Shown: in pieces, positions 1,304 through 33,368 of the stretch
How the letters are laid out: every line of letters starts with the position of its first letter
How positions within the stretch are numbered: position 1 is the stretch's first letter
NCBI GenBank assembly: GCA_938040315.1
Contig: CALHQW010000015.1
Location: forward strand, 13,729 to 77,728
DNA length: 64,000 nucleotides
Direction of reading: 5' to 3'
Source of the DNA: an uncultured bacterium
Lineage (GTDB): Bacteria > Hydrothermota > Tepidihabitantia > Tepidihabitantales > DTDR01
Position numbers and translations under genes: made by a program
The notes under the pieces: model-generated
Databases searched by the model: none
The model's input: only the letters and a program-made list of their open reading frames with translations
Told to the model about the DNA's origin: nothing

Positions 1304-2757
1304 AAAAGTACTACTTTTTAATAATTTTTTTGTATCTCTTACCTATCTTTTACTTAACTTATTTTCCTTTTGTTGACCTACCTCAGCATTTGCATTTTGC
1401 CTATGTTTTAAAAAATTTTTCTAACTATGAGGCTTATTTTGAAAAGAGATTATTTCCTATGCATAATACTTTTCATCTTTTTTTTAATACTTTTTTATCA
1501 AATTTTTTGCCTTTAGATATCACTAATAGAATTTATATTGGATTAATTATTCTTTTAACTTTCCTTTCTTTTTATTATCTCTTAAAAGTAGTCAATGGTG
1601 AGAAATCCTTTTCTCTTTTGAGTTTATTAATTGCCTATAATTATAATCTTTTTTGGGGATTTATGGGAATTGCTTTTGCTTTTCCTTTAATTATTTTTCT
1701 TTTTGCCTTAACAATAAATTTATTAAAAGGAAACAAAAAAGAGAATTTAATTATTCTTTTCCTTACTCTTCTCTTTATCCTCATTTTTCTTTGCCATTCT
1801 TTAACTTTTATTTATTCTTTTGTTAGTTATTTAATAATTATTTTTTTAAATAAAAAATCTTTTAAACTTAAACATCTTTTACCACCTTTAATTACCTTGA
1901 TATTTTTCTTTCTTCCTTGGCAAGCGCAACAATTTCAAAGAGAAGGTAGTGAACTTATCAGCCAGTTTAAAGAAAATATCTCTTTCAAAGCAATTTACCA
2001 AAATATTTTAGATTTTTGGGAAAGATTAGGAATAAAAAGCGACAACTTGATAATTTTTTTCTTTAAAATAATAACTTTATTAGGAATATTTGTTTTAATT
2101 ACCGATCGCCATCTTTTTAAAGAAAGTAAAATATTATCCACAATCTTCTTGGTCACCTTGGCTTTTTATTTCTTTTTTCCAGGAAGTTATACAGAAGCAG
2201 TATTTTTAAATGAGCGATTTGCTCCTTTACTTTTTCTTTTTTTAATTGTTTATATAAGTTTAAAAATTAAAAAATCAATTGTAAAATATATAATTTTGGC
2301 AGTATTAATAATAAATATAATTGATTTAAATCTCCGATTCTTAATGTTTGAAAAATATGCTCAAGAGTTTAAAAAAATTGTAGATAAATTAGAACCAAAT
2401 AAAAAGGTTGTGGGAATTTTCTATGATAAAAGACCAAAACCCGATCTATTTGGTTACGATATTTTTCTCCACTTTCCTTGTTATTACCAGTTAAAAAAAG
2501 GAGGTCTTATCGGTTTTTCTTTTGCCTATATCCGTTATTCACCCTTAATATTTAAAGAAAATTATCCTTTAGAAAGGATTGATGAATGGTTCCCCTATCG
2601 TTCCCTTTTCCCTTATCGTTATAAAGATTACGATTATCTTTTTATTACTGGTGAAATCAGATTGAGTGATGAAAAATATTTCCGAAAAATGACTTTAATT
2701 GATAGTATTTCTTTCTTCCGAGTTTATTCGCCAAAAAAAGAGGTTTTTAATTTTTGA
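1300..2757 (+). CDS. hypothetical polytopic membrane protein (about 10 predicted TM helices plus C-terminal soluble domain)
   Basis: ATGA overlap with the upstream ORF. Highly hydrophobic N-terminal two-thirds (FLIIFLYLLPIFY..., LIILFLTLLFILIFLCHSL...). Family not recognised. Confidence 0.4.
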   Translation: MKKYYFLIIFLYLLPIFYLTYFPFVDLPQHLHFAYVLKNFSNYEAYFEKRLFPMHNTFHLFFNTFLSNFLPLDITNRIYIGLIILLTFLSFYYLLKVVNGEKSFSLLSLLIAYNYNLFWGFMGIAFAFPLIIFLFALTINLLKGNKKENLIILFLTLLFILIFLCHSLTFIYSFVSYLIIIFLNKKSFKLKHLLPPLITLIFFFLPWQAQQFQREGSELISQFKENISFKAIYQNILDFWERLGIKSDNLIIFFFKIITLLGIFVLITDRHLFKESKILSTIFLVTLAFYFFFPGSYTEAVFLNERFAPLLFLFLIVYISLKIKKSIVKYIILAVLIINIIDLNLRFLMFEKYAQEFKKIVDKLEPNKKVVGIFYDKRPKPDLFGYDIFLHFPCYYQLKKGGLIGFSFAYIRYSPLIFKENYPLERIDEWFPYRSLFPYRYKDYDYLFITGEIRLSDEKYFRKMTLIDSISFFRVYSPKKEVFNF

Positions 2758-13396: not shown

Positions 13397-13876
13397 ATGA
13401 TTTTTTATTCAATAAATGAAGTATTAGAAATGGCTATCCAAATTGAAAAAAGTGGTTATCAGTTTTATTTAAAATCAAAAGAAAAAACTAATGATAAGAA
13501 ATTAAAAGAACTTTTTAACTTCTTATCTATTGAAGAATTAAGGCACAGGGAAACCTTTGAAGGAATTAAAAACAAATTAAAAACAACTCCCTATACTTTA
13601 CCTTATAACTGGGAAGAAGCCAAATTATACTTAAAAGCAATTACCGACTCCCATTTTTTTAAAGGAGAAGATAAAGTTTTAAATCTAATGGAAAAAACCG
13701 AAAATGAAAAGGAATTAATCAATTTGGCAATTGCTTTTGAAAAAGAAACTTTAATTTTCTATTATGAAATATTAAATCTGGTTGGGGAAGAAGAAAAATC
13801 AACAGTTTTAAAATTAATTCAAGAAGAAAAAAACCATATTAAAAAATTAGAAACAATAAAGGAAGAAAAGATATGA
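13397..13876 (+). CDS. erythrin/rubrerythrin-like diiron ferritin-like protein (paralog 1 of 3)
   Basis: Four-helix-bundle ligand pattern E(IEKSG)...EELRHRE...E(FEKET)...EEKNHIKKLE. No rubredoxin domain. Confidence 0.6.
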   Translation: MIFYSINEVLEMAIQIEKSGYQFYLKSKEKTNDKKLKELFNFLSIEELRHRETFEGIKNKLKTTPYTLPYNWEEAKLYLKAITDSHFFKGEDKVLNLMEKTENEKELINLAIAFEKETLIFYYEILNLVGEEEKSTVLKLIQEEKNHIKKLETIKEEKI

Positions 13877-14376
13877 ATGAAATTTTTAAATTGGCGATCG
13901 ACTTAGAAAAAGAAGCTTTGCTTTCCTATCTTCGTTTTGGACACCAAATAAAAGATTTAAGAGGTAAAGACCTTTTTATCCGTTTAGCAATGGACGAATT
14001 TGAACATATCGAAATCTTAGAGAAAGAATCCCAATATTTTGAGAAAGAGAAAGGATTTAAAGAATTAGAAATTCCTCTAACGGAAATTGAAAAAATTGTA
14101 GATAATTTAAAACCCTTGCTACCAAAAGAAAAAAAAATATCTGATTTAAAGGAGTTAAATATTTTACAAATGGCCTTAACATTAGAGAAAAAAAGTATCG
14201 ATTTTTATCAAAACCAAGAAAAAGCAAGCAAAGAAGAAGTATCTAAGAAGATCTGGAAAAGATTAAAAGAAGTTGAAGAAGGTCATTATCGACTTATTCA
14301 AGCAGAAATTGATTATTTAACAAAAACTGGTTTTTGGTTTGATTTTCGGGAATTTAGTTTAGAAGTGGAGAAGTAA
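13873..14376 (+). CDS. erythrin/rubrerythrin-like diiron ferritin-like protein (paralog 2 of 3)
   Basis: AIDLEKEA...DEFEHIEILE...ALTLEKKSIDFY...EEGHYRLIQAE. ATGA overlap with paralog 1. Confidence 0.6.
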   Translation: MNEIFKLAIDLEKEALLSYLRFGHQIKDLRGKDLFIRLAMDEFEHIEILEKESQYFEKEKGFKELEIPLTEIEKIVDNLKPLLPKEKKISDLKELNILQMALTLEKKSIDFYQNQEKASKEEVSKKIWKRLKEVEEGHYRLIQAEIDYLTKTGFWFDFREFSLEVEK

Positions 14377-14394
14377 TTTGAAAAGGAGGAATTT

Positions 14395-14886
14395 ATGGAA
14401 GAAACTTTGACTTCTTTAGAAATATTACAAAAAGCAATAAAATCAGAGGTCGAAGCCTTCCAATTTTATAATAAACTGCAAGAGGTAGTTGAAAATAAAG
14501 TTTTAAAAAAGAAGTTGAATTTTTTAAAAAGGGAAGAAAAAAAACATGAGAAATTATTAAGAAATATTTTCAAAAATCAGTTTCCTAAAGAAAAAATAAA
14601 ATTGCCCAAAAAAGGCTTTACTCCTTTACCAACAATTGAGAAAATAGAAAAATTATCTTTAGAATCCCTTTTGGAAGCAGCAATGGAAGCCGAAGAGATT
14701 TCTGAAAAATTCTATCGGGAAAATTCAATATTAATTAATGATGAAAATAGCAAAAGATTATTAATTTATCTATCTTCAATGGAGAAATCACACTACCAAA
14801 TTTTGAAAACAGAATACGATTTATTAACTAGTTTTACTTCTTACGAGGCTTATAAAAAATTCTCCTTAGAGCATTTAGGACCATGA
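14395..14886 (+). CDS. erythrin/rubrerythrin-like diiron ferritin-like protein (paralog 3 of 3)
   Basis: AIKSEVEAFQFY...REEKKHEKLL...AMEAEEISEKFY...MEKSHYQILKTE. RBS aaaggaggaatttATG. Confidence 0.6.
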   Translation: MEETLTSLEILQKAIKSEVEAFQFYNKLQEVVENKVLKKKLNFLKREEKKHEKLLRNIFKNQFPKEKIKLPKKGFTPLPTIEKIEKLSLESLLEAAMEAEEISEKFYRENSILINDENSKRLLIYLSSMEKSHYQILKTEYDLLTSFTSYEAYKKFSLEHLGP

Positions 14887-16046
14887 AAAAAATATATCTT
14901 GATCATCAAGCTACGACGCCTATCCATCCTGAAGTTCTTTCTTTAATGGAGAATATTCAAAAAGAAATATTTGGCAATCCCCAAAGTTCTCATTATTTCG
15001 GTTTTGAAGCTAAAAAACTGTTAGAAGAGGCAAGAGAAAATATTGCTTCCCTTTTAAATGTTTCTCCTTCGGAAATTTATTTCACTTCCTCTGGGGCTGA
15101 AAGTAATAATTGGGCAATCAAGAAGGTTGCCTTTGCTAACCAAAATAAAGGCAATCATATCATTATTTCCGCAATCGAACATCCTTCAGTAATTCAACCA
15201 GCAAAAAGATTAGAAAAATTGGGGTTTGAAATCACCTATTTGCCAGTTGATAAATATGGTACCATTGATTTAGAAGAGTTAAAAAAGAAAATAAAAAAAG
15301 AAACAATTCTTATTTCTATAATGCATGCCAATTATGAAGTTGGTACAATTGAACCAATCAAAGAAATTGCCGAAATTGCTAAAGAAAATAAAATTATTTT
15401 TCATTCGGACGGTGTGGCAGCAGCAGGTCAATTAAAAATTGATTTAAAAGAACTCGGTGTGGATCTTTATACGATTTCCTCCCATACCTTCTACGGTCCC
15501 AAAGGAGTAGCATTATTATATATCAAAAGGGGAACAAAAATTCAACCATTAATAGAAGGCGGTATTCAAGAAAATAATCGTCGAGCAGGAACCGAAAATT
15601 TGATTGGTATTATTGGTATGGCAAAGGCTTATGAAATTGCCATAAAAGAAATGGAAGAAAGAAAAAATAAGTTAGAAAAATTAAGAAATAGGTTGATAGA
15701 AGAATTACCTAAAAAAATTGATAATATTTATTTAACCGGTCATCCCCAAAATCGTCTACCTAATCATGCTAGTTTTTGTGTTGAGTATGTAGAAGGTGAA
15801 GCAATGGTTTTATATTTAAATCAATATGGAATCGCCTGTGCCTCTGGTTCTGCCTGTTCTTCTAAACAATTAAAGGCTTCTCATGTCCTTTTGGCAATGG
15901 GTATTTCACCAGTCTTAGCCCAGGGTTCTGTTATTTTCACTTTAGGGATCAATAACACTGAAGAAGACATTGACTATCTTTTAGAAGTATTTCCACCAAT
16001 TGTAAAAAGATTAAGAGAAATCTCACCTTTATATAAAATTTCTTGA
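14883..16046 (+). CDS. cysteine desulfurase (IscS/NifS class V aminotransferase)
   Basis: SSHTFYGPKGVALLY (PLP lysine), catalytic-loop Cys in ASGSACSS. ATGA overlap with ferritin-like paralog 3. Confidence 0.85.
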   Translation: MKKIYLDHQATTPIHPEVLSLMENIQKEIFGNPQSSHYFGFEAKKLLEEARENIASLLNVSPSEIYFTSSGAESNNWAIKKVAFANQNKGNHIIISAIEHPSVIQPAKRLEKLGFEITYLPVDKYGTIDLEELKKKIKKETILISIMHANYEVGTIEPIKEIAEIAKENKIIFHSDGVAAAGQLKIDLKELGVDLYTISSHTFYGPKGVALLYIKRGTKIQPLIEGGIQENNRRAGTENLIGIIGMAKAYEIAIKEMEERKNKLEKLRNRLIEELPKKIDNIYLTGHPQNRLPNHASFCVEYVEGEAMVLYLNQYGIACASGSACSSKQLKASHVLLAMGISPVLAQGSVIFTLGINNTEEDIDYLLEVFPPIVKRLREISPLYKIS

Positions 16047-16073
16047 ATCAACTTTATATAAAATTTCTTGAAT
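16027..16073. repeat. perfect tandem duplication of a 22-mer ctttatataaaatttcttgaat (25-bp period) spanning the desulfurase stop codon
   Basis: Copy 1 about 16027-16048, a caa spacer, copy 2 about 16052-16073. Read directly. Confidence 0.7.
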
Positions 16074-16207
16074 TAAAAATTATTTTAAATTATAATAAAA
16101 TAAAATATGAAAAAAGAGAAATTATTTTTCTTTATCGATATTTCTAATTTTATTTTTTTAATATTTTTCTATGTTTTAAAAAACAAACATCAAAGAGGAG
16201 ATGAACG

Positions 16208-16729
16208 ATGAAATTAAAAAATTTAATTTTTATCTTAGTTTTATTTATTTTTATTCCTACCCAAGAAAAAAGGGATACTTTAAAATCTTATAAAAAAGCA
16301 CCGAGCTTTTCTCTTTATAATATTAATAAAGAAAAAATTTATCTTGATTCTCTACTAAATAAAGGACCAATTTTTATTAGTTTTTGGGCGTTGTGGTGTA
16401 AACTTTGTATTCAAGAACTTGATGCTTTTAAAAAAATATATGACCAATATGAAACCTTAGGGCTTAAAGTTTTAGCAATTTCAGAGGACGGACCAAGAGC
16501 AGTAAATAATATAAAATCTTTTGTCAAAGGGAAAAAATGGAAATATGAAATTTTATTAGACCCGGACGGAAAAATAAGAGAACTCTTTGGTGTTGGTTCA
16601 ACTCTGCCAACAAGTTTTATCCTTGATAAAGAAGGAAATATCCGTTTGATTTCGCGAGGTTATAAAAAAGGTGATGAAAAAAAATTTGTAAAAGTTATTG
16701 AAGAGATAATTAATGAAGCGAAAGAGTAA
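16208..16729 (+). CDS. secreted TlpA/redoxin-family thiol-disulfide oxidoreductase (thioredoxin fold, CxxC)
   Basis: Signal peptide MKLKNLIFILVLFIF. Active site FWALWCKLC. RBS aagaggag 8 nt upstream. Confidence 0.65.
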   Translation: MKLKNLIFILVLFIFIPTQEKRDTLKSYKKAPSFSLYNINKEKIYLDSLLNKGPIFISFWALWCKLCIQELDAFKKIYDQYETLGLKVLAISEDGPRAVNNIKSFVKGKKWKYEILLDPDGKIRELFGVGSTLPTSFILDKEGNIRLISRGYKKGDEKKFVKVIEEIINEAKE

Positions 16730-18179
16730 ATTTGTTTTATTTATTCTTCTCTTCTTTTATCTTTATTCCCAAGAAGAAACACCGATTGAAAAAAAGTTAA
16801 ACCTTTCTGGCGAAATAAAAGGAGAGTATTGGCTTTGGACAAAAGAAAATAAAGATAAAAGTTTTAAATTTTCCGACCATTTTGAAGGAAAATTCCGTTT
16901 TTTAATCAACTATGAAAACATTTATTTACGAACCGGTATTTTTCTTTATCAACCAAGTTTACCTAAGAAATCTTTGAAAGAATATTATTATAATTTTGAA
17001 TATTGCCATCCCCAAGCAGAATTTTTAATAGGTAATTTTTATCAGGTTTTTGGTCGGGGTCTTACTTTTCGTTCTTATTTTAATGAAGACTTTCGTTATG
17101 ATAAAGTTTTATTTGGTGGTAGGGCTATCCTCCATATTTTTAAATCTGATATTCTTCTCTTTGCTGGAAAAATGAAAAATATTATCTTTCAAGAAAATAA
17201 ATACCAATATGAAAATGATACTACCGATCAATTAAGGGGTGGAGAAATCGTTATCTATCCTTTTCCCCACTTAGAAATTGGTGGTCGTTATATAAGATTA
17301 AATAAAGAAAAAGATATAACACCTCGAGCTTTTGCAGAAATATTTGGACCAAGTATTTCTTTTACTTATAATTTTTTTGATCTATATTATGAATTTTGTG
17401 AAAAACTTTCTACCCGAGAAGTGCTTGGTGGCAGAAAAAAAGGATACGGTCATTATTTAGTAACTTCTTTTACTTTTACTGGCTTCGGCCTCAGTTTAGA
17501 AGGAATGAAATATGATAGCATCGATTTTGGTGGTGAAGGATATCGCTATAATGATGTACCGACACCAAGTAGAGAGGGAATATCAATTAATCGGGGAAGA
17601 GACGAAAAAGGAGGTAGTATTTCCTTAAATTTCACACCTTTTGATTTCTTAAATTATGATGGTAGTTACGGGTACTTACAAACTTATAAAAAAGATAAAT
17701 ATCTTAAAGAACTCATTAATAAAATTAATTTTAAAAAGAATGAAGATTTTAATAATACCTTTATTTTTGAATACCTCCAGAAAAAAGGGATAGAAATAAA
17801 AGTAGAGTTAACAGAGGAGTTAAAATTTATTAATGAAACTAAATTGTCCTTTAATAATCATACCTTTAATTTAGAGATACCTTTAAATTTTGTTTCTGAT
17901 GATACTTTGAAATACAAAGATTTTGGAGTAATTTTTGAATATCAAAACAATCCCTATTTTACATTAACTATGAATTATCAAAAAACAACTACAAAGATTC
18001 CTAAATATGATTATGAAGATAAATGGTTATTATTTGAAGGGACTTTTTTTATAACCCAAAATATAACTTGGCGAATAAGAGTTGGGCAAGAAAGAGGTGG
18101 ACTTATTTGTTCCGGTGGTGTCTGTCGTTATGAAGCACCTTTTAATGGAATGAAAATTTCTCTACAAGCGAGATTTTGA
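16713..18179 (+). CDS. hypothetical outer-membrane beta-barrel protein
   Basis: Signal peptide MKRKSKFVLFILLFFYLYSQE. Alternating aromatic/polar beta-strand pattern throughout. C-terminal ...SLQARF (terminal Phe, OMP-like). 17-nt overlap with the redoxin gene. Confidence 0.4.
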   Translation: MKRKSKFVLFILLFFYLYSQEETPIEKKLNLSGEIKGEYWLWTKENKDKSFKFSDHFEGKFRFLINYENIYLRTGIFLYQPSLPKKSLKEYYYNFEYCHPQAEFLIGNFYQVFGRGLTFRSYFNEDFRYDKVLFGGRAILHIFKSDILLFAGKMKNIIFQENKYQYENDTTDQLRGGEIVIYPFPHLEIGGRYIRLNKEKDITPRAFAEIFGPSISFTYNFFDLYYEFCEKLSTREVLGGRKKGYGHYLVTSFTFTGFGLSLEGMKYDSIDFGGEGYRYNDVPTPSREGISINRGRDEKGGSISLNFTPFDFLNYDGSYGYLQTYKKDKYLKELINKINFKKNEDFNNTFIFEYLQKKGIEIKVELTEELKFINETKLSFNNHTFNLEIPLNFVSDDTLKYKDFGVIFEYQNNPYFTLTMNYQKTTTKIPKYDYEDKWLLFEGTFFITQNITWRIRVGQERGGLICSGGVCRYEAPFNGMKISLQARF

Positions 18180-18313
18180 TGAGAAAATATCTCTTTTTTA
18201 TTTCTTTAGTTATTGGCGTTATTTTCTTAATTATAGCATTAAGATCAGAACAGATTAAAGAAGTATTTAATACTGGCATCTTGCTTTGCCTTTCTTGTAT
18301 TGGTTTAGGATGA
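18179..18313 (+). CDS. 44-aa single-TM membrane peptide with C-terminal CxxC (not in the ORF track)
   Basis: ATG shares a base with the barrel gene stop (TGATG), and its TGA overlaps the ATG of the downstream polyferredoxin (ATGA). Translation MRKYLFFISLVIGVIFLIIALRSEQIKEVFNTGILLCLSCIGLG. No strong RBS. Confidence 0.35.
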   Translation: MRKYLFFISLVIGVIFLIIALRSEQIKEVFNTGILLCLSCIGLG

Positions 18314-19269
18314 GACCCTTTAGAATTTCCCAAATAATTTTTACAATATTAATTAACAGTTATATTTTAGTATTCTTTCAAAAAACTTTAATTTATACTG
18401 GTTATTTAAAGAGTTTTTTAGTGCCAATATTAAATTGTTGGTCAGCACCAACTACTTGGTTTTCTTGTCCCTTAGGTGCCTATCAACATTTTATAATAAT
18501 TAAAGATTTTCCTTTTTATGTACTTGGTCTATTTTTAATAATCGGTGCTTTTATTGGTAGAATGGCTTGTGGCTGGTTATGTCCTTTTGGACTTTTTCAA
18601 GATCTTCTTTTTAAAATAACAAAGAAAAAAATCTCCCTTCCCCAACTTGCTCCTTTATTTACAATTATACTATTTCTATTCTCTTATCTTTTTATCTGGC
18701 TTAAATTCAATTATCTTTCTTTAACTATCAAAATTTTAATTATCTTAATCTCTACAATTATTGGTTTTCTTTTAGATATTTTTTTAAAAATCCGTATAAA
18801 AATTTTTGATCTTACTTTTCTAAAATATTTTTTTCTTTTATTTTTAGCAACTTTTATTGTTTTTTTTACTAATGAACCCTGGTTTTGTAAAGTTTGCCCC
18901 CAAGGTACCTTAGAAGCCGGTGTTCCTTTAATATTATACGACCCCGAAAATAGTTTAAAGACGATGGCTGGTTTATTTTTCTACTTCAAAATTTTAATAT
19001 TTATCATTATTTTTATTTTAGCAATTTTTATAAAAAGAATATTCTGTAAACTTATCTGTCCGATTGGCGCAATCTATTCTTTCTTCAATAAAATAAGCCT
19101 CTTTCATTTAAAAGTTGATAAAGAAAAATGTGGTAAATGTAATATTTGTGTAAAAGTTTGTCCAACTGATATAAATGTCTACGAGAATGCCAATCAAACT
19201 GATTGTATAAGATGTTTGGAATGCTATTATCAATGCCCCAAAAAAGTAATTAAATTAAAATTTTCTTAA
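18310..19269 (+). CDS. NapH/MauN/NosR-type membrane polyferredoxin (4 CX3CP motifs plus two 4Fe-4S ferredoxin motifs)
   Basis: CPLGAYQ, CGWLCPFGLFQD, CKVCPQGTLEAG, CKLICPIGAIYS, then CGKCNICVKVCP and CIRCLECYYQCP. Multiple TM helices. Start placed at MRPF (ATGA coupling); the track start is 18286. Confidence 0.6.
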   Translation: MRPFRISQIIFTILINSYILVFFQKTLIYTGYLKSFLVPILNCWSAPTTWFSCPLGAYQHFIIIKDFPFYVLGLFLIIGAFIGRMACGWLCPFGLFQDLLFKITKKKISLPQLAPLFTIILFLFSYLFIWLKFNYLSLTIKILIILISTIIGFLLDIFLKIRIKIFDLTFLKYFFLLFLATFIVFFTNEPWFCKVCPQGTLEAGVPLILYDPENSLKTMAGLFFYFKILIFIIIFILAIFIKRIFCKLICPIGAIYSFFNKISLFHLKVDKEKCGKCNICVKVCPTDINVYENANQTDCIRCLECYYQCPKKVIKLKFS

Positions 19270-19365: not shown

Positions 19366-20496
19366 ATGAAATTATTTGAATATCAGGCAAAAGAGATATT
19401 TAGAAAATTTAATATTTTAACACCTAAAGAAAAATTGGCAAATAATGAATATGAGGCAATAATCTTTGCTAAAGAGATTGGTTTTCCTTGTATATTTAAG
19501 GCACAAGTTCTGGTTGGCGGTCGTGGTAAAGCCGGGGGAATTAAAAGAATAGAAAATGAAGAAGAAGCTAAGAGATTTGCAAAAGAAATGTTCCTTTTAA
19601 AAATAAAAGATATTCCTGTTGAGAAATTATTAATAAGTAGTTTTGTTGATATAAAAAAAGAATTATATCTTTCAATCACTATTGATAGACAAGAAAAAAT
19701 TCCAATTATTATTGCCTCAAAAGAAGGAGGAATAGAAATTGAAGAATTGGCAAAGGAAAGACCGGAAACTATTTTAAAAATAAATATTGATCCCCTTTTA
19801 GGATTTAAAAATTATCAAGGAAGGAATCTCTGTTTAGAATTATTTGGTGATTTATCCTTAGTTAATCAATTTAATGAACTTTTACAAAAATTAACCACTA
19901 TTTTTTTTCTTTACGAACTCCAATTAGTAGAGATTAATCCTTTGGCTTTAACCAAAGATAATAACTTTTGCGCAATTGATGCAAAAATAATTATTGATGA
20001 TAACTCTCTTTTCCGCCATCCAGAATTTAAAAATTATGTAACCCAAGAGATTAAAAATAAAATTGAAGAAGAAGCAAAAAGTTTAGGATTCTCTTATATA
20101 AAATTAGAAGGAAAAGTTGGTTGTATTGTGAATGGCGCTGGTTTAGCAATGGCAACATTAGATTTAATAAAAAAGTACGGCGAAAATCCCGCAAATTTTT
20201 TAGACATTGGCGGTTCAACCAATAAAGAAAGAATTGAAAAGGCATTAAAATTATTAATCCAAGACAAAGATATCAAGGTAATTTTAGTAAATATTTTTGG
20301 TGGAATTACTCGTTGTGATGATGTTGCTTATGGTTTGCTATCGGTTATTAAAGAGATAAATATTCCAATCGTCGCTCGTCTTATTGGTACAAACCAGGAT
20401 AAGGCTTACGAAATATTGAAAGATACTAATATAATTTTGATTGATAATATGAAAGAAGCAATTAAAAAGGCTGTTGAAATAGCAGTAAAATCATGA
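19366..20496 (+). CDS. sucC: succinyl-CoA synthetase (ADP/GDP-forming) beta subunit, ATP-grasp
   Basis: MKLFEYQAKEIF..., KAQVLVGGRGKAGG, CIVNGAGLAMATLD. Confidence 0.8.
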   Translation: MKLFEYQAKEIFRKFNILTPKEKLANNEYEAIIFAKEIGFPCIFKAQVLVGGRGKAGGIKRIENEEEAKRFAKEMFLLKIKDIPVEKLLISSFVDIKKELYLSITIDRQEKIPIIIASKEGGIEIEELAKERPETILKINIDPLLGFKNYQGRNLCLELFGDLSLVNQFNELLQKLTTIFFLYELQLVEINPLALTKDNNFCAIDAKIIIDDNSLFRHPEFKNYVTQEIKNKIEEEAKSLGFSYIKLEGKVGCIVNGAGLAMATLDLIKKYGENPANFLDIGGSTNKERIEKALKLLIQDKDIKVILVNIFGGITRCDDVAYGLLSVIKEINIPIVARLIGTNQDKAYEILKDTNIILIDNMKEAIKKAVEIAVKS

Positions 20497-21377
20497 GTAT
20501 TTTAATTAATAGAAATACAAAGGTTTTGGTTCAAGGAATAACTGGTAGAGATGGTCAATTTCATACCCAAAGAATGATAAATTTGGGAACTAAAATCCTT
20601 GCCGGTGTTACTCCCGGAAAGGGTGGTCAGAAAATTAAATTTCCAAATAGTGAACCAGTACCGGTTTTCAATTCTATTTATGAAGCCAAAAAATATTTTG
20701 AATTTGATGCCAGTGTCGTGTTTGTCCCGGCTACTTTTGCTACTGATGCAATTTATGAAGCGATAGACGAAAATATTTCTTTGATTGTGGTGATTACAGA
20801 AGGTATACCAGTCCATGATATGATAAAGATTAATGCCTATCTAAAAAATAAAAAATCTAAATTACTCGGACCTAATTGTCCAGGTATTTTAGTTCCTGAA
20901 GAAGTAAAAATTGGCATTATTCCTCATGAATATTTTAAAAGAGGTATAATTGGAGTGGTATCAAGAAGTGGAACTTTGACTTATGAAATCTCTTATTATA
21001 TTTCTCAAACTAAATACGGAATATCAACAATTGTTGGTATTGGTGGCGATCCCATTAAAGGAATGGATTTTGTTGATATCTTAAAACTTTTTAATAAGGA
21101 TGAAGAGACCAAAGTGATTGTAATTATTGGTGAAATTGGTGGTTTAGATGAGGAAGAGGCAGCAAAATTTGTAAAAAGAAATATTAAAAAGCCAGTATTT
21201 GGTTTTATTGCTGGGAAAACCGCACCGCCCGAAAAGCGAATGGGTCATGCAGGCGCAATAATTGAACAGGGAAGAGGAACTGCTCAAAGTAAAATTGAAG
21301 CCTTTATCAGTGCTGGTATTGAAGTTTTCGAAGAACCTCAAGAAATCATTAATTTATTAGAAAAAATAAATTTGTGA
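20493..21377 (+). CDS. sucD: succinyl-CoA synthetase alpha subunit
   Basis: VLVQGITGRDGQFHT, GIVSRSGTLTYE, MGHAGAII (phosphohistidine loop). ATGA overlap with sucC. Confidence 0.85.
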   Translation: MSILINRNTKVLVQGITGRDGQFHTQRMINLGTKILAGVTPGKGGQKIKFPNSEPVPVFNSIYEAKKYFEFDASVVFVPATFATDAIYEAIDENISLIVVITEGIPVHDMIKINAYLKNKKSKLLGPNCPGILVPEEVKIGIIPHEYFKRGIIGVVSRSGTLTYEISYYISQTKYGISTIVGIGGDPIKGMDFVDILKLFNKDEETKVIVIIGEIGGLDEEEAAKFVKRNIKKPVFGFIAGKTAPPEKRMGHAGAIIEQGRGTAQSKIEAFISAGIEVFEEPQEIINLLEKINL

Positions 21378-21616
21378 AAAAATTTTTAAAAGAAGAACCT
21401 CAAATTTATTTTTCTAACGATAATAAAAAGATAATAAAAGTTATAAAATATTTCTGTAAAGGATGTGGCATTTGTATTCATTTTTGTCCAAAAAAAGTAT
21501 TGGATTGGGATAAAGATTTTAAAGTATTTGCTAAAAATCCTAACGATTGTATTGCTTGTTATCTCTGTGAATTAATGTGCCCTGATTTTGCTATTTTTGT
21601 TGAAAAAGAAAAATAG
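21374..21616 (+). CDS. korD: 2-oxoacid:ferredoxin oxidoreductase delta subunit (2x[4Fe-4S] ferredoxin)
   Basis: 80 aa. CKGCGICIHFCP and CIACYLCELMCP. Confidence 0.7.
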   Translation: MKKFLKEEPQIYFSNDNKKIIKVIKYFCKGCGICIHFCPKKVLDWDKDFKVFAKNPNDCIACYLCELMCPDFAIFVEKEK

Positions 21617-22723
21617 ATGCGTCAATTATTATCAGGAAACGAAGCCACGGCAATCGGAGCAATAAAGGCGGGAATAAGATTCTTTGCCGGCTACCCAATC
21701 ACCCCTTCTACGGAAATTGCTGAATATATGGCACGGGAATTACCGAAAATTGGCGGAGTTTTTATCCAAATGGAAGACGAAATTGCTTCCATCAATGCGG
21801 TAATTGGTGCCAGTGCCAGTGGCATGAAGGCAATGACTGCAACTTCCGGACCAGGTTTTTCCTTAATGCAAGAAGGAATTGGTTATGCTTGTATGGCAGA
21901 AATACCCTGTCTTATTGTAAATGTTCAAAGAGGAGGTCCAGCCACTGGCTTACCAACAAAACCCTCTCAAAGTGATGTGATGCAGACCAGATGGGGTACC
22001 CACGGAGACCATCCGATTGTCGTTTTTTACCCTTACAATGTTTTAGAAAGTTTTTATTTAACAGTTAAAGCAATCAATACTGCCTATTTTTTACGAGTAC
22101 CGGTAATTTTACTTACTGATGAAATAATTGCTCACATGCGGGAAGCCGTTGAATTACCAGAAGAAGTTGAAATTTATCAACCAAAAAGAAAGAAAAAAAG
22201 TCCTGAAGAATTCCTATATTATTCAGAAGAGACAATCTATGATAGTGAAGTTGCCTATTTTGGCGAAGGCTATCGGATTCATATTTCTGGACTAACCCAT
22301 CGAGAAGATGGGTTTCCAACTAATAAGCCTGAGGTAATTAAAAGAAAATTAGATAGGCTAAAAAGAAAAATTGAAGATAATAAAGAAAAATTATGGGATT
22401 TAGAATATCAAGATATTGGTGCGGAAGTTTGCCTTATCTCTTACGGAATTTCTGCCCGAACCGCTTTAGAGGCAAAATATATTTTTGAAAAAGAAGAGAA
22501 AAGAGCATTAGGTTATATCCGCCTTAAAACAATCTGGCCTTTCCCAGATAAACCATTGAGAGCTCTATTAAAAAGTGCTAAAAAGGTTATTGTCGTGGAA
22601 ATGAACCAGGGACAATTAATCAACGAAATTGAAAGAGCAATAAGTCCAGAGATTGAAATTATTGGTGTCCAAAGATATGATGGTGAAATAATAACACCGG
22701 AAGAAATATTAGCAGTGATATGA
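21617..22723 (+). CDS. korA: 2-oxoglutarate/2-oxoacid:ferredoxin oxidoreductase alpha subunit
   Basis: LSGNEATAIGAIKAG, GYPITPSTEI, TSGPGFSLMQEGIGYA. Confidence 0.8.
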   Translation: MRQLLSGNEATAIGAIKAGIRFFAGYPITPSTEIAEYMARELPKIGGVFIQMEDEIASINAVIGASASGMKAMTATSGPGFSLMQEGIGYACMAEIPCLIVNVQRGGPATGLPTKPSQSDVMQTRWGTHGDHPIVVFYPYNVLESFYLTVKAINTAYFLRVPVILLTDEIIAHMREAVELPEEVEIYQPKRKKKSPEEFLYYSEETIYDSEVAYFGEGYRIHISGLTHREDGFPTNKPEVIKRKLDRLKRKIEDNKEKLWDLEYQDIGAEVCLISYGISARTALEAKYIFEKEEKRALGYIRLKTIWPFPDKPLRALLKSAKKVIVVEMNQGQLINEIERAISPEIEIIGVQRYDGEIITPEEILAVI

Positions 22724-22733
22724 AAGAAGAAAT

Positions 22734-23555
22734 ATGAAAGAAGAAATAAAAAATTATTTAAGATTAGATGAAAGATTTCCTCACATTTTATGCCCTGGTT
22801 GCGGTATTGGAACAATCGCTAATATTCTTATAAGAACTTTTAATGAATTAAATTTAGATAAAAATAATATTTGTTTAGTTTCTGGTATTGGCTGTTCCTC
22901 CCGAATTCCCGGATATATTGATTGTGATACTTTTCATACACTCCATGGCCGAGCAATCCCTTGCGCAATTGGAGTAAAATTGGCAAGACCGTATTTAAAA
23001 GTGATTATTATTGGCGGAGACGGCGATATTTTAGCGATTGGTTTAAGTCATTTTATCCATGCGGCGAGAAGAAATATTGATTTAACTGTAATAATTGTTA
23101 ATAATTATAATTACGGAATGACCGGTGGTCAAGTTTCACCCACTACTCCTAAAGGTAAATTTACTTACACTACCCCTTACGGTAATCTTGAAGAAGAATT
23201 TAATATTTATGAAATATCAAAAAGCGCTGGCGCAATTTTCTTTGCTCGCTCCACTACTTATCATGTTACTCATTTAAAAAAAGTGCTTAAAAAAGCACTT
23301 ACTAAAAAAGGGTTTTCAGTGGTTGAAATCCTTTCCCAATGCCCTACTCTTTATGGTCGTTTGAATAGATTAGGAGATGCTGTTAAAATGTTGGAGGAGT
23401 TCAAAAACAGGACAATTGATATTTCTCTTATTAAAGAACCTGGAGAAATACCTTCTGATAAAATTATAATTGGCATCTTATTGGATAGAGAAAGAGAGGA
23501 GTATTGTGAAAAATATGAAAGATTAAGAAAAGCAATAAATGAGAAAAGAGATTAG
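22734..23555 (+). CDS. korB: 2-oxoacid:ferredoxin oxidoreductase beta subunit (TPP-binding)
   Basis: CPGCGIG, GIGCSSR, IIIGGDGD (TPP motif). Confidence 0.8.
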   Translation: MKEEIKNYLRLDERFPHILCPGCGIGTIANILIRTFNELNLDKNNICLVSGIGCSSRIPGYIDCDTFHTLHGRAIPCAIGVKLARPYLKVIIIGGDGDILAIGLSHFIHAARRNIDLTVIIVNNYNYGMTGGQVSPTTPKGKFTYTTPYGNLEEEFNIYEISKSAGAIFFARSTTYHVTHLKKVLKKALTKKGFSVVEILSQCPTLYGRLNRLGDAVKMLEEFKNRTIDISLIKEPGEIPSDKIIIGILLDREREEYCEKYERLRKAINEKRD

Positions 23556-24072
23556 AATTGCTGGAACAGGTGGACAAGGGATTATTTTTGCGGCGATTGT
23601 TTTAGCCGAGGCAGCGGGTATTTATGAAAATAAATACGTTACCCAAATTCAATCTTACGGTCCGGAAGCACGAGGAGGCGCCAGTAAAGCGGATATAATT
23701 ATTAGTGACCAACCTATCTATTTTCCCCAAACTCAAGAGTTAGATATTTTAGTTTGTCTCAGCCAACAATCCCTTGATGAATATGTTAAAAAATTAAAAG
23801 AGAAAGGTACCCTTTTTATTGATTCTTATTATTGTAAAAACTTCAATAAGGAGAAAATAAAAACCTACGCTTTTCCTTTTTCATTGGTTGCTAAAGAGAA
23901 ATTGGGAAGGGAATTATTTGCTAACATAATTCTTTTAGGCTCCCTTGCTCGTTTTACTAAAATTGTAAGTATTGAATCATTAAAAAAGGCAATCTCCCAC
24001 CGAGTGGCTCCCCAATTTTTAGCAATTAACGAAAAAGCACTAATGTTGGGTTATGAGATCGATCAATTATAA
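23539..24072 (+). CDS. korG: 2-oxoacid:ferredoxin oxidoreductase gamma subunit
   Basis: IRIAGTGGQGII...GPEARGGAS. Confidence 0.7.
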   Translation: MRKEIRIAGTGGQGIIFAAIVLAEAAGIYENKYVTQIQSYGPEARGGASKADIIISDQPIYFPQTQELDILVCLSQQSLDEYVKKLKEKGTLFIDSYYCKNFNKEKIKTYAFPFSLVAKEKLGRELFANIILLGSLARFTKIVSIESLKKAISHRVAPQFLAINEKALMLGYEIDQL

Positions 24073-33295: not shown

Positions 33296-33368
33296 GCGCC
33301 TGTAGCTCAGTGGATAGAGCGGCGGACTCCGGATCCGCAGGTCGCGCGTTCAAATCGCGTCAGGCGCT
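33296..33368 (+). tRNA. tRNA-Arg (anticodon CCG)
   Basis: gcgcctg ta gctcagtggatagagc g gcgga ctCCGga tccgc aggtc gcgcg ttcaaat cgcgt caggcgc t. Perfect 7-bp acceptor stem, anticodon loop CTCCGGA, T-loop TTCAAAT. CCA is not encoded. Confidence 0.85.

Follow-up and report, generated by a model that had tools for sequence, protein, structure and literature searches.

A CD1871A-family CxxC membrane peptide encoded beside a NapH-like polyferredoxin, with probable selenocysteine-containing relatives

We analyzed a 64,000-nucleotide (nt) stretch of contig CALHQW010000015.1 (assembly GCA_938040315.1), from an uncultured bacterium of the Hydrothermota; this whole stretch is called the window below. 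Our subject is a small gene at 18179..18313, encoding a 44-amino acid (aa) peptide with a CxxC motif at its C-terminal end, together with the membrane polyferredoxin gene that it overlaps. Four window genes overlap in series across 16208..19269, with a 162-nt gap before the first. They are listed here with the peptide gene and its polyferredoxin companion ahead of the two genes upstream.

18179..18313, + strand: CD1871A-family CxxC peptide gene, cysteine (Cys) form (evidence: sequence, NF040920, an independent profile, the ratio of nonsynonymous to synonymous substitution rates (dN/dS), hydropathy)
18310..19269, + strand: NapH-like membrane polyferredoxin, 319 aa (PF12801, Fer4 families, invariant Cys, AlphaFold2 (AF2) model)
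16208..16729, + strand: TlpA/ResA-like thioredoxin-fold protein, 173 aa (AhpC-TSA 1.8e-24, Redoxin 9.4e-15)
16713..18179, + strand: DUF6029 protein, 488 aa, putative outer-membrane beta-barrel (PF19494 2.1e-24)

The peptide gene and its polyferredoxin companion

The product of 18179..18313 is MRKYLFFISLVIGVIFLIIALRSEQIKEVFNTGILLCLSCIGLG, whose C-terminal end is CLSCIGLG. Both junctions of the gene are ATGA overlaps. Its ATG (18179-18181) shares one base with the TGA of the DUF6029 gene (18177-18179), and its TGA (18311-18313) shares two bases with the ATG of the polyferredoxin gene (18310-18312). By hydropathy the peptide has a basic N-terminus, very hydrophobic residues at about 4-21, an amphipathic linker, and a tail, again hydrophobic, that contains C37xxC40. 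The initial annotation, made from the letters of the DNA, had described this double nesting, with one base common to the upstream TGA and two to the downstream ATG, and a hydrophobic helix followed by CLSCIGLG; coordinates, translation and hydropathy all agree with it. An open reading frame (ORF) listing puts the start one codon earlier, at TTG 18176; we favor ATG 18179 because homologs begin with M-[RK]-[RK].

Short ORFs are frequent across the AT-rich window, and the open frame at 18179..18313 is therefore by itself no proof of a gene. Comparison with relatives is more telling. Metagenome-assembled genomes (MAGs) of candidate division WOR-3 encode four proteins of 44-45 aa, 70-80% identical to the window peptide and set in the same gene order, where they are called hypothetical proteins. 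Against WOR-3 relatives the peptide gene has a dN/dS of 0.17-0.20; its last 21 codons differ from those of one WOR-3 locus (L001) by nine synonymous changes and one non-synonymous. A hidden Markov model (HMM) was built independently from 41 peptides found in other phyla, with the window peptide and its two close relatives excluded. It scores the window peptide at 44.3 bits (E=8.5e-13); when all 1,103 stop-to-stop segments of the window that reach 25 aa are searched, this is the sole match, with the runner-up segment at 7.6 bits. An antisense ORF of 63 codons (18142..18333, - strand) spans the whole gene and is open in relatives too; by its substitution pattern we read it as a shadow of the forward frame. 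Rfam gave no RNA family in the peptide region, its only match in the window being a tRNA gene at 33296..33368 (+ strand). The low dN/dS and the independent profile match bear out the initial view of a real coding frame: 18179..18313 is shown by sequence comparison to be a gene, for a predicted single-pass membrane protein of 44 aa.

The initial annotation had treated the peptide as unannotated, but besides the hypothetical proteins called in related MAGs there is a curated family model, NCBIfam NF040920 ("CD1871A family CXXC motif-containing protein"). The window peptide aligns to it over model positions 2-38 of 38, at 18.7 bits (E=1.1e-3). For comparison, the Clostridioides difficile peptide scores 66.1 bits and a selenocysteine (Sec) form from Poribacteria (L008, with U read as C) 32.8 bits; 36 of the 44 locus-derived peptides tested match the model. 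No Pfam family matched the peptide at E<=0.1, CcoS/FixS, NapE and the FeoB-associated Cys-rich membrane protein included. Like NF040920 proteins, it is about 44-50 aa long, with an N-terminal transmembrane (TM) helix, a linker and a C-terminal C-L-x-C-[IM]-G-[ILV]-G, the ending that the locus peptides share; C37, C40 and G42 are invariant in the family alignment. Its gene also lies, as for the family, directly 5' of a Fer4_5 polyferredoxin gene, this position being an empirical family feature. It differs in subtype, since the window peptide belongs to the CLSC or '..NTG.LLCLSC' type of diderm lineages and the clostridial type reads 'GE..V..KA.NICLEC'. We assign the window peptide, on sequence, to NF040920 as a divergent Cys-form member. 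The novelty is that of a new divergent member of a family already named, though unstudied: we found no functional study of the CD1871A family in the literature. The curated model misses the diderm-lineage subtype, as the window peptide shows.

One profile search for the family returned 3,314 clusters (90% identity) and a second 3,501 representatives (50% identity). The family hits listed measure 44-97 aa, and nearly all have the motif at the C-terminus or close to it; the best 150 of the 3,501 representatives are 46-97 aa long, and all except three carry it at their C-terminal end. Members carry the NCBI names "CD1871A family CXXC motif-containing protein", "thioredoxin" or "hypothetical protein". 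The 'thioredoxin' label that some public records give to peptides of about 45 aa (e.g. P0138, P0146 and P0215) is a misleading legacy annotation, because a protein of that length is far below thioredoxin-fold size. As for the family name, according to a table in PMC12772354 the region of C. difficile 630 that includes locus CD18710 bears the label 'conjugative transposon', which suggests that a mobile element may carry the ORF behind the name in that strain. Some mentions of 'CD1871' in the literature follow a different numbering scheme. The C. difficile locus of our set (L062) has the usual order of thioredoxin, peptide and polyferredoxin.

The polyferredoxin that follows matches PF12801 (Fer4_5, 5.2e-18) in three stretches, plus Fer4 families of Pfam. 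It contains two CX3CP motifs, C87xxxC91P and C246xxxC250P, and a C-terminal 2x[4Fe-4S] ferredoxin domain (C274-C309) whose eight Cys form two CxxCxxCxxxC motifs; the Cys of the CX3CP motifs and of the ferredoxin domain are invariant in 68 homologs. The positive-inside rule predicts that the CX3CP motifs and the ferredoxin domain are inside and that C43, C53, C193 and C196 are at the outer face. Its start is taken as ATG 18310 because homologs begin with MRP[FY]R. The initial annotation had allowed for an upstream Met at 18286, but that codon is TTG, and the homologs fit ATG 18310. Models of NapH itself score the protein at 54.9 bits (TIGR02163, cutoff 213) and 53.9 bits (NF007013, cutoff 234), over residues 225-317 only; by sequence we class it as NapH-like and not as NapH proper.

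An AF2 model of the polyferredoxin alone has a mean confidence (pLDDT) of 81.4, with the outer loop 20-48 below 50. Matches in a sequence profile search of the PDB were confined to the C-terminal ferredoxin domain, and Foldseek found nothing in the PDB for the AF2 model at E<=0.001. At E<=0.1, neither the polyferredoxin nor the peptide has a Pfam match to the DsbD/CcdA domain (PF02683). The window protein and its closest WOR-3 relatives carry an insertion of about 54 aa (residues about 112-165) that adds two predicted TM helices. Most homologs, of 260-300 aa, are without it, and other WOR-3 paralogs are 412-547 aa long. Two outer-loop Cys that are common elsewhere (consensus K..C37VPILNCW.C46P) are both missing in polyferredoxins of the WOR-3 clade, which have F, L or P at position 37 and A, T, M or G at position 46; this joint loss suggests that Cys37 and Cys46 act as a pair in other lineages.

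To survey the pairing of the two genes, 80 loci were fetched by way of polyferredoxin homologs (contigs, one genome per species), of which 78 could be evaluated for the peptide, L050 and L077 being cut off. The peptide gene precedes the polyferredoxin gene in 77 of the 78, as the Cys form in 72 and the Sec form in five; L044 is the only evaluable locus without it. The 72, C. difficile included, have a small + strand ORF with the C-terminal motif just 5' of the polyferredoxin gene. In 53 of 63 loci the polyferredoxin ORF either overlaps the peptide stop or begins no more than 30 nt from it. The peptide gene is thus shown, as far as gene order can show it, to be an almost obligate and usually overlapping companion of the NapH-like polyferredoxin gene across many phyla. 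This answers the check suggested with the initial annotation, conservation at the same position 5' of the NapH-like gene; its feared outcome, a frame or CxxC not kept at orthologous loci, did not arise, as both are kept across phyla. No other family recurs in the adjacent downstream gene or in the second genes on both sides of the loci, and there are no nap genes in 72 related loci.

Selenocysteine-form relatives

In eight independent loci, drawn from at least four phyla and three of them WOR-3 lineages, an in-frame TGA stands at the first Cys of the peptide, and the residues past the TGA stay conserved through the true stop. The loci are as follows, with the position of the TGA and, where given, the C-terminal end with U for Sec.

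L008 (Poribacteria): TGA 2027, ...LLULSCIGIG
L009 (Chloroflexota): TGA 3663, ...LLULSCLGIQ
L017 (Deltaproteobacteria): TGA 3195, ...TLUTACIGLG
L027 (Proteobacteria): TGA 739, ...LLULSCIGVG
L080 (WOR-3): TGA 3902, ...QIULSCMGLV
L086 (WOR-3): TGA 3384, reached via polyferredoxin homologs
L087 (Desulfobacterales): TGA 2008, reached via polyferredoxin homologs
L089 (WOR-3): TGA 1069, reached via polyferredoxin homologs

A hairpin resembling a selenocysteine insertion sequence (SECIS) lies about 11-18 nt 3' of each TGA. Its median energy in the Sec-form loci is -7.55 kcal/mol; the 74 Cys-form loci compared have nothing as strong at this position, and their median is -2.1 kcal/mol (one-sided Mann-Whitney p=2e-4). 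The hairpins of the three WOR-3 loci (GGCCUA/UAGGCC, GGGUUUA/UAAACCC and GGGCUUA/UAAGCCC) have two compensatory stem positions. The window gene has TGC (Cys) at the corresponding codon and only a weak 5-bp hairpin of -2.5 kcal/mol. Aligned UGA codons, conserved coding downstream and the hairpin together argue strongly that the eight UGA-form relatives are selenoproteins. Their ORFs are for the most part truncated or uncalled in public records; of six truncated forms one is in the protein collection, unnamed. A 2026 review tabulates the known and predicted prokaryotic selenoprotein families, and NF040920 is not in its table (PMC13188914). Assignment to another selenoprotein, TsoA with its 'LULAxC' motif (NF045695), was tried and rejected, as the Sec forms with U read as C match NF040920 only.

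The Sec/Cys exchange at the first Cys, together with the hairpin, points to a redox-active residue; a Cys/Sec pair is a hallmark of catalytic redox residues (PMC13188914). The exchange may have a correlate in the polyferredoxin, where C193, which opens the Cys pair of an outer-loop FCxxCP motif, is replaced by Ser in four of eight Sec-form loci and in three of 76 Cys-form loci (Fisher p=0.001, uncorrected for phylogeny):

Polyferredoxin position 193 Ser: Sec forms L008, L017, L027 and L087; Cys forms L025, L064 and L088

In the Desulfobacterales locus L087 a further gene (2069..2398) lies between the Sec-form peptide and the polyferredoxin, and it has repeated in-frame TGA codons (...AGAGUVPPTGG... 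read twice with U).

Thioredoxin-fold gene, DUF6029 gene and surroundings

A third conserved partner, absent from the initial annotation, is the TlpA-like gene that lies two genes 5' of the peptide gene in the window. Its product matches the ResA subfamily at 3.1e-24, below the cutoff, and has an N-terminal signal or anchor sequence and a WCKLC active site, the C. difficile counterpart having WCGPC. The TlpA-like proteins of the other loci likewise carry a WCxxC site and a sequence of signal or lipoprotein type. The gene directly 5' of the peptide encodes a Redoxin, AhpC-TSA or Thioredoxin fold in 33 of 69 loci, and a TlpA-like gene is found in 52 of 73 peptide-bearing loci (34 adjacent, nine further upstream, and seven downstream on the same strand). 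The TlpA-like protein is likely the extracytoplasmic electron acceptor of the module.

Besides the window, six loci have a DUF6029 gene; they belong to WOR-3, Latescibacterota, Stahlbacteria, Cloacimonadota and one MAG without classification. In the WOR-3 loci, as in the window, it comes after the thioredoxin gene and before the peptide gene. From this distribution it appears to be a lineage-specific addition to the module. DUF6029 loci were recorded as the window, L001, L003, L011, L025, L055, L075, L080 and L086, in WOR-3-like and related diderm lineages only. The protein ends in a conserved C-terminal motif, ...CSGGVCRYEAPF.

The 162-nt gap before the four overlapping genes contains one further feature.

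16068..16096, + strand: promoter-like site TTGAAT-17-TATAAT (consensus scan)

The scan found 26 such sites where 20 are expected by chance, and 16068..16096 is a possible candidate for an operon promoter. Between the four genes there are no terminator-like sites besides two weak internal ones.

Upstream of the module in the window are ffh, rubrerythrin-like genes and nifS, and sucC lies directly 3' of the polyferredoxin gene. Within 13397..16046, immediately ahead of the module, a NifS-type cysteine desulfurase comes after three tandem rubrerythrin/ferritin-like paralogs (159, 167 and 163 aa), which ffh precedes; the order ffh, rubrerythrin-like, NifS also occurs in two WOR-3 loci (L001 and L002). 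On the other side, 19366..24072 holds sucC plus further co-oriented ORFs. At the corresponding place WOR-3 loci have sucD, a small ferredoxin and subunits of 2-oxoacid:ferredoxin oxidoreductase, whose nearness suggests a possible low-potential electron source adjoining the module.

A possible electron relay, its rivals and known systems

We favor, by a slim degree, the interpretation in which the peptide belongs, as a small subunit, to an Fe-S transmembrane conduit and acts as a thiol or selenol electron relay to the TlpA-like protein. Three considerations lead us to propose it as an outer-face redox mini-subunit: the topology, the conduit role of NapH-like proteins, and the Cys/Sec exchange. 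By the positive-inside rule we infer that the peptide is N-in, C-out. The four-TM/CX3CP membrane module is common to NapH, NosR and RdhC (PMC5928378), and the prevailing view of NapH-like proteins is that they form modular conduits for electrons across the membrane (PMC8238504).

In such a scheme the N-terminus (MRK) of the peptide would be cytoplasmic, its helix would span the membrane once, and the CLSCIGLG tail would lie at the outer face, with its CxxC beside the invariant outer-loop C43, C53 and C193xxC196 of the polyferredoxin. A low-potential donor would pass electrons to the cytoplasmic 2x[4Fe-4S] domain, and the CX3CP/Cys module would carry them across the membrane. At the outer face they would reduce the peptide CxxC, or the selenylsulfide UxxC in other lineages, and the reduced peptide would in turn reduce the TlpA-like protein. 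The ATGA overlaps would couple translation, with the two subunits made together. WOR-3-like diderm lineages would have added the DUF6029 barrel to this module. Together the three proteins would be the Fe-S-driven equivalent of the DsbD/CcdA-TlpA pathway, working by chemistry akin to that of ferredoxin:thioredoxin reductase. Direct contact between peptide and polyferredoxin is weakly hinted at by the low-confidence outer loop 20-48 and by the C193S pattern.

A number of points weigh against this interpretation. The topology has charge bias and the analogy with NapH as its whole basis. The window peptide, at 18.7 bits, is under the curated NF040920 cutoff of 32 bits. Within the fetched flanks 21 of the 73 loci are without a TlpA-like gene; the acceptor may therefore differ there or be encoded elsewhere. 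The C193S association ignores phylogeny. No natural fusion of peptide and polyferredoxin occurs among the best 120 of the 3,314 family clusters or the best 150 of the 3,501 representatives. Finally, Sec is also found in metal-binding proteins (table in PMC13188914), and the CxxC or the outer-loop Cys might serve as ligands of a metal or an Fe-S cluster instead.

This last point, developed in full, is an unlikely alternative: the peptide Cys and the outer-loop Cys of the polyferredoxin would be ligands of an extracytoplasmic Fe-S cluster or metal, and electrons would pass from cluster to protein with no thiol-disulfide exchange. The polyferredoxin has four to six conserved Cys in predicted outer loops and the peptide contributes two, numbers that would suit one or two clusters; the WOR-3 clade has lost Cys37 and Cys46 jointly; and the CX3CP motifs of NapH and NosR may themselves serve either as a disulfide or in cluster binding (PMC5928378). 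Against ligation, swapping Cys for Sec at a single defined position is characteristic of catalytic redox residues (PMC13188914), and the conserved partner is a thioredoxin-fold WCxxC protein, of a kind normally reduced via thiol-disulfide exchange. Moreover, in the passage of PMC5928378 that cites the figure, NosR is given only about 8 Fe, enough for its two ferredoxin clusters.

We consider it less likely again that the peptide works as an assembly factor or in the manner of a metallochaperone, off the electron path, and matures or stabilizes the polyferredoxin, for instance through cofactor or membrane insertion. Tight gene coupling suits an assembly factor as well as a subunit. Related systems do have single-pass accessory proteins, CcoS of ccoGHIS for example, and CxxC motifs bind Cu(I) and Zn. 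The peptide, however, has its motif at the extreme C-terminus after a hydrophobic stretch, with no features of a metallochaperone fold and no Pfam match at E<=0.1; Sec variants would be costly for a mere chaperone; and the module co-occurs with a thioredoxin-fold protein, not with metal transporters. The initial annotation had suggested a small subunit or a metallochaperone-like partner of the polyferredoxin. A dedicated partner it remains, by the pairing in 77 of 78 loci, but the metallochaperone part loses ground to a redox-active CxxC, which the Sec variants favor.

The last two alternatives are very improbable. That the short frame is a regulatory upstream ORF, a translational-coupling device or a chance ORF with a functionless peptide, the polyferredoxin perhaps starting from TTG 18286, draws on the coupling that ATGA overlaps do give and on the frequency of short ORFs in this AT-rich window, but it is countered by amino-acid conservation across phyla with invariant C37, C40 and G42, by the dN/dS of 0.17-0.20 and the independent profile match (E=8.5e-13), and by the MRP[FY]R start of the polyferredoxin homologs at ATG 18310. 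That it is the precursor of a ribosomally synthesized and post-translationally modified peptide (RiPP), with a Cys-rich C-terminal core processed by the neighboring Fe-S protein, would suit a small peptide with a conserved Cys-containing C-terminus and an adjoining Fe-S protein, but its N-terminal part is a TM helix, not a leader, and the neighbor is a NapH-like polyferredoxin, with no radical-SAM, protease or exporter partner.

Returning to the relay, we put forward, more tentatively and with doubts outweighing our confidence, a broader reading: the CD1871A peptide and the polyferredoxin would constitute an undescribed Fe-S-driven transmembrane disulfide/selenylsulfide reductase that passes low-potential electrons from the cytoplasm to TlpA-like thioredoxins outside it, independent of DsbD/CcdA and widespread in anaerobes, with the UxxC forms as an unlisted selenoprotein family. 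We found no literature on a polyferredoxin with a thiol-disulfide oxidoreductase. If true, this reading would explain how ferredoxin-level reducing power reaches the external face of the membrane with no need of DsbD/CcdA, and would explain the role of the puzzling cysteine motifs in NapH/NosR-type proteins. The three-gene module is present in thousands of anaerobes, among them C. difficile and gut Clostridia. Small membrane proteins are routinely missed or left "hypothetical", and the peptide marks this module. As the mark of a catalytic residue, the Cys/Sec exchange would also give a direct experimental handle.

Among known systems, the window polyferredoxin is, like NapH, NosR, RdhC (PceC), MauN and CcoG (PF12801), a multi-TM protein with two CX3CP motifs and a C-terminal 2x[4Fe-4S] domain. 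Unlike in the NapH/NosR module, the neighboring genes are neither nap nor nos genes (napG and napA are absent) and code for no domain that binds flavin mononucleotide (FMN); they are the DUF6029 gene and sucC. It differs from NapH, NosR and RdhC also in having extra invariant Cys in two predicted outer loops, and in its dedicated CxxC/UxxC mini-subunit, which is undescribed for those proteins (PMC5928378, PMC8238504).

With DsbD/CcdA and TlpA/ResA/CcmG the proposed system would share a logic, in which a cytoplasmic reductant acts through membrane Cys pairs on an extracytoplasmic WCxxC protein. The analogy is functional only, as the membrane component here is an Fe-S protein; this suggests that the electron source is ferredoxin-like rather than thioredoxin. 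With ferredoxin:thioredoxin reductase and heterodisulfide reductase it may share its chemistry, passing electrons from one-electron Fe-S centers to a two-electron disulfide or selenylsulfide and on to a thioredoxin-fold protein; no sequence relationship to them was detected. Those enzymes are soluble or peripheral and have an Fe-S cluster next to a redox-active disulfide. Sec forms of both are listed in PMC13188914.

A further comparison is with DUF4266, an accessory protein that is likewise very small and has a Cys motif conserved at its C-terminus, and whose gene sits in an extracytosolic electron-transfer cluster that also encodes a thioredoxin-like protein, as here. It belongs to another family, with a CXC motif in place of CxxC/UxxC; DUF4266 is secreted and has DsbD as its partner, whereas the CD1871A peptide is predicted to be membrane-anchored and is paired with a polyferredoxin.

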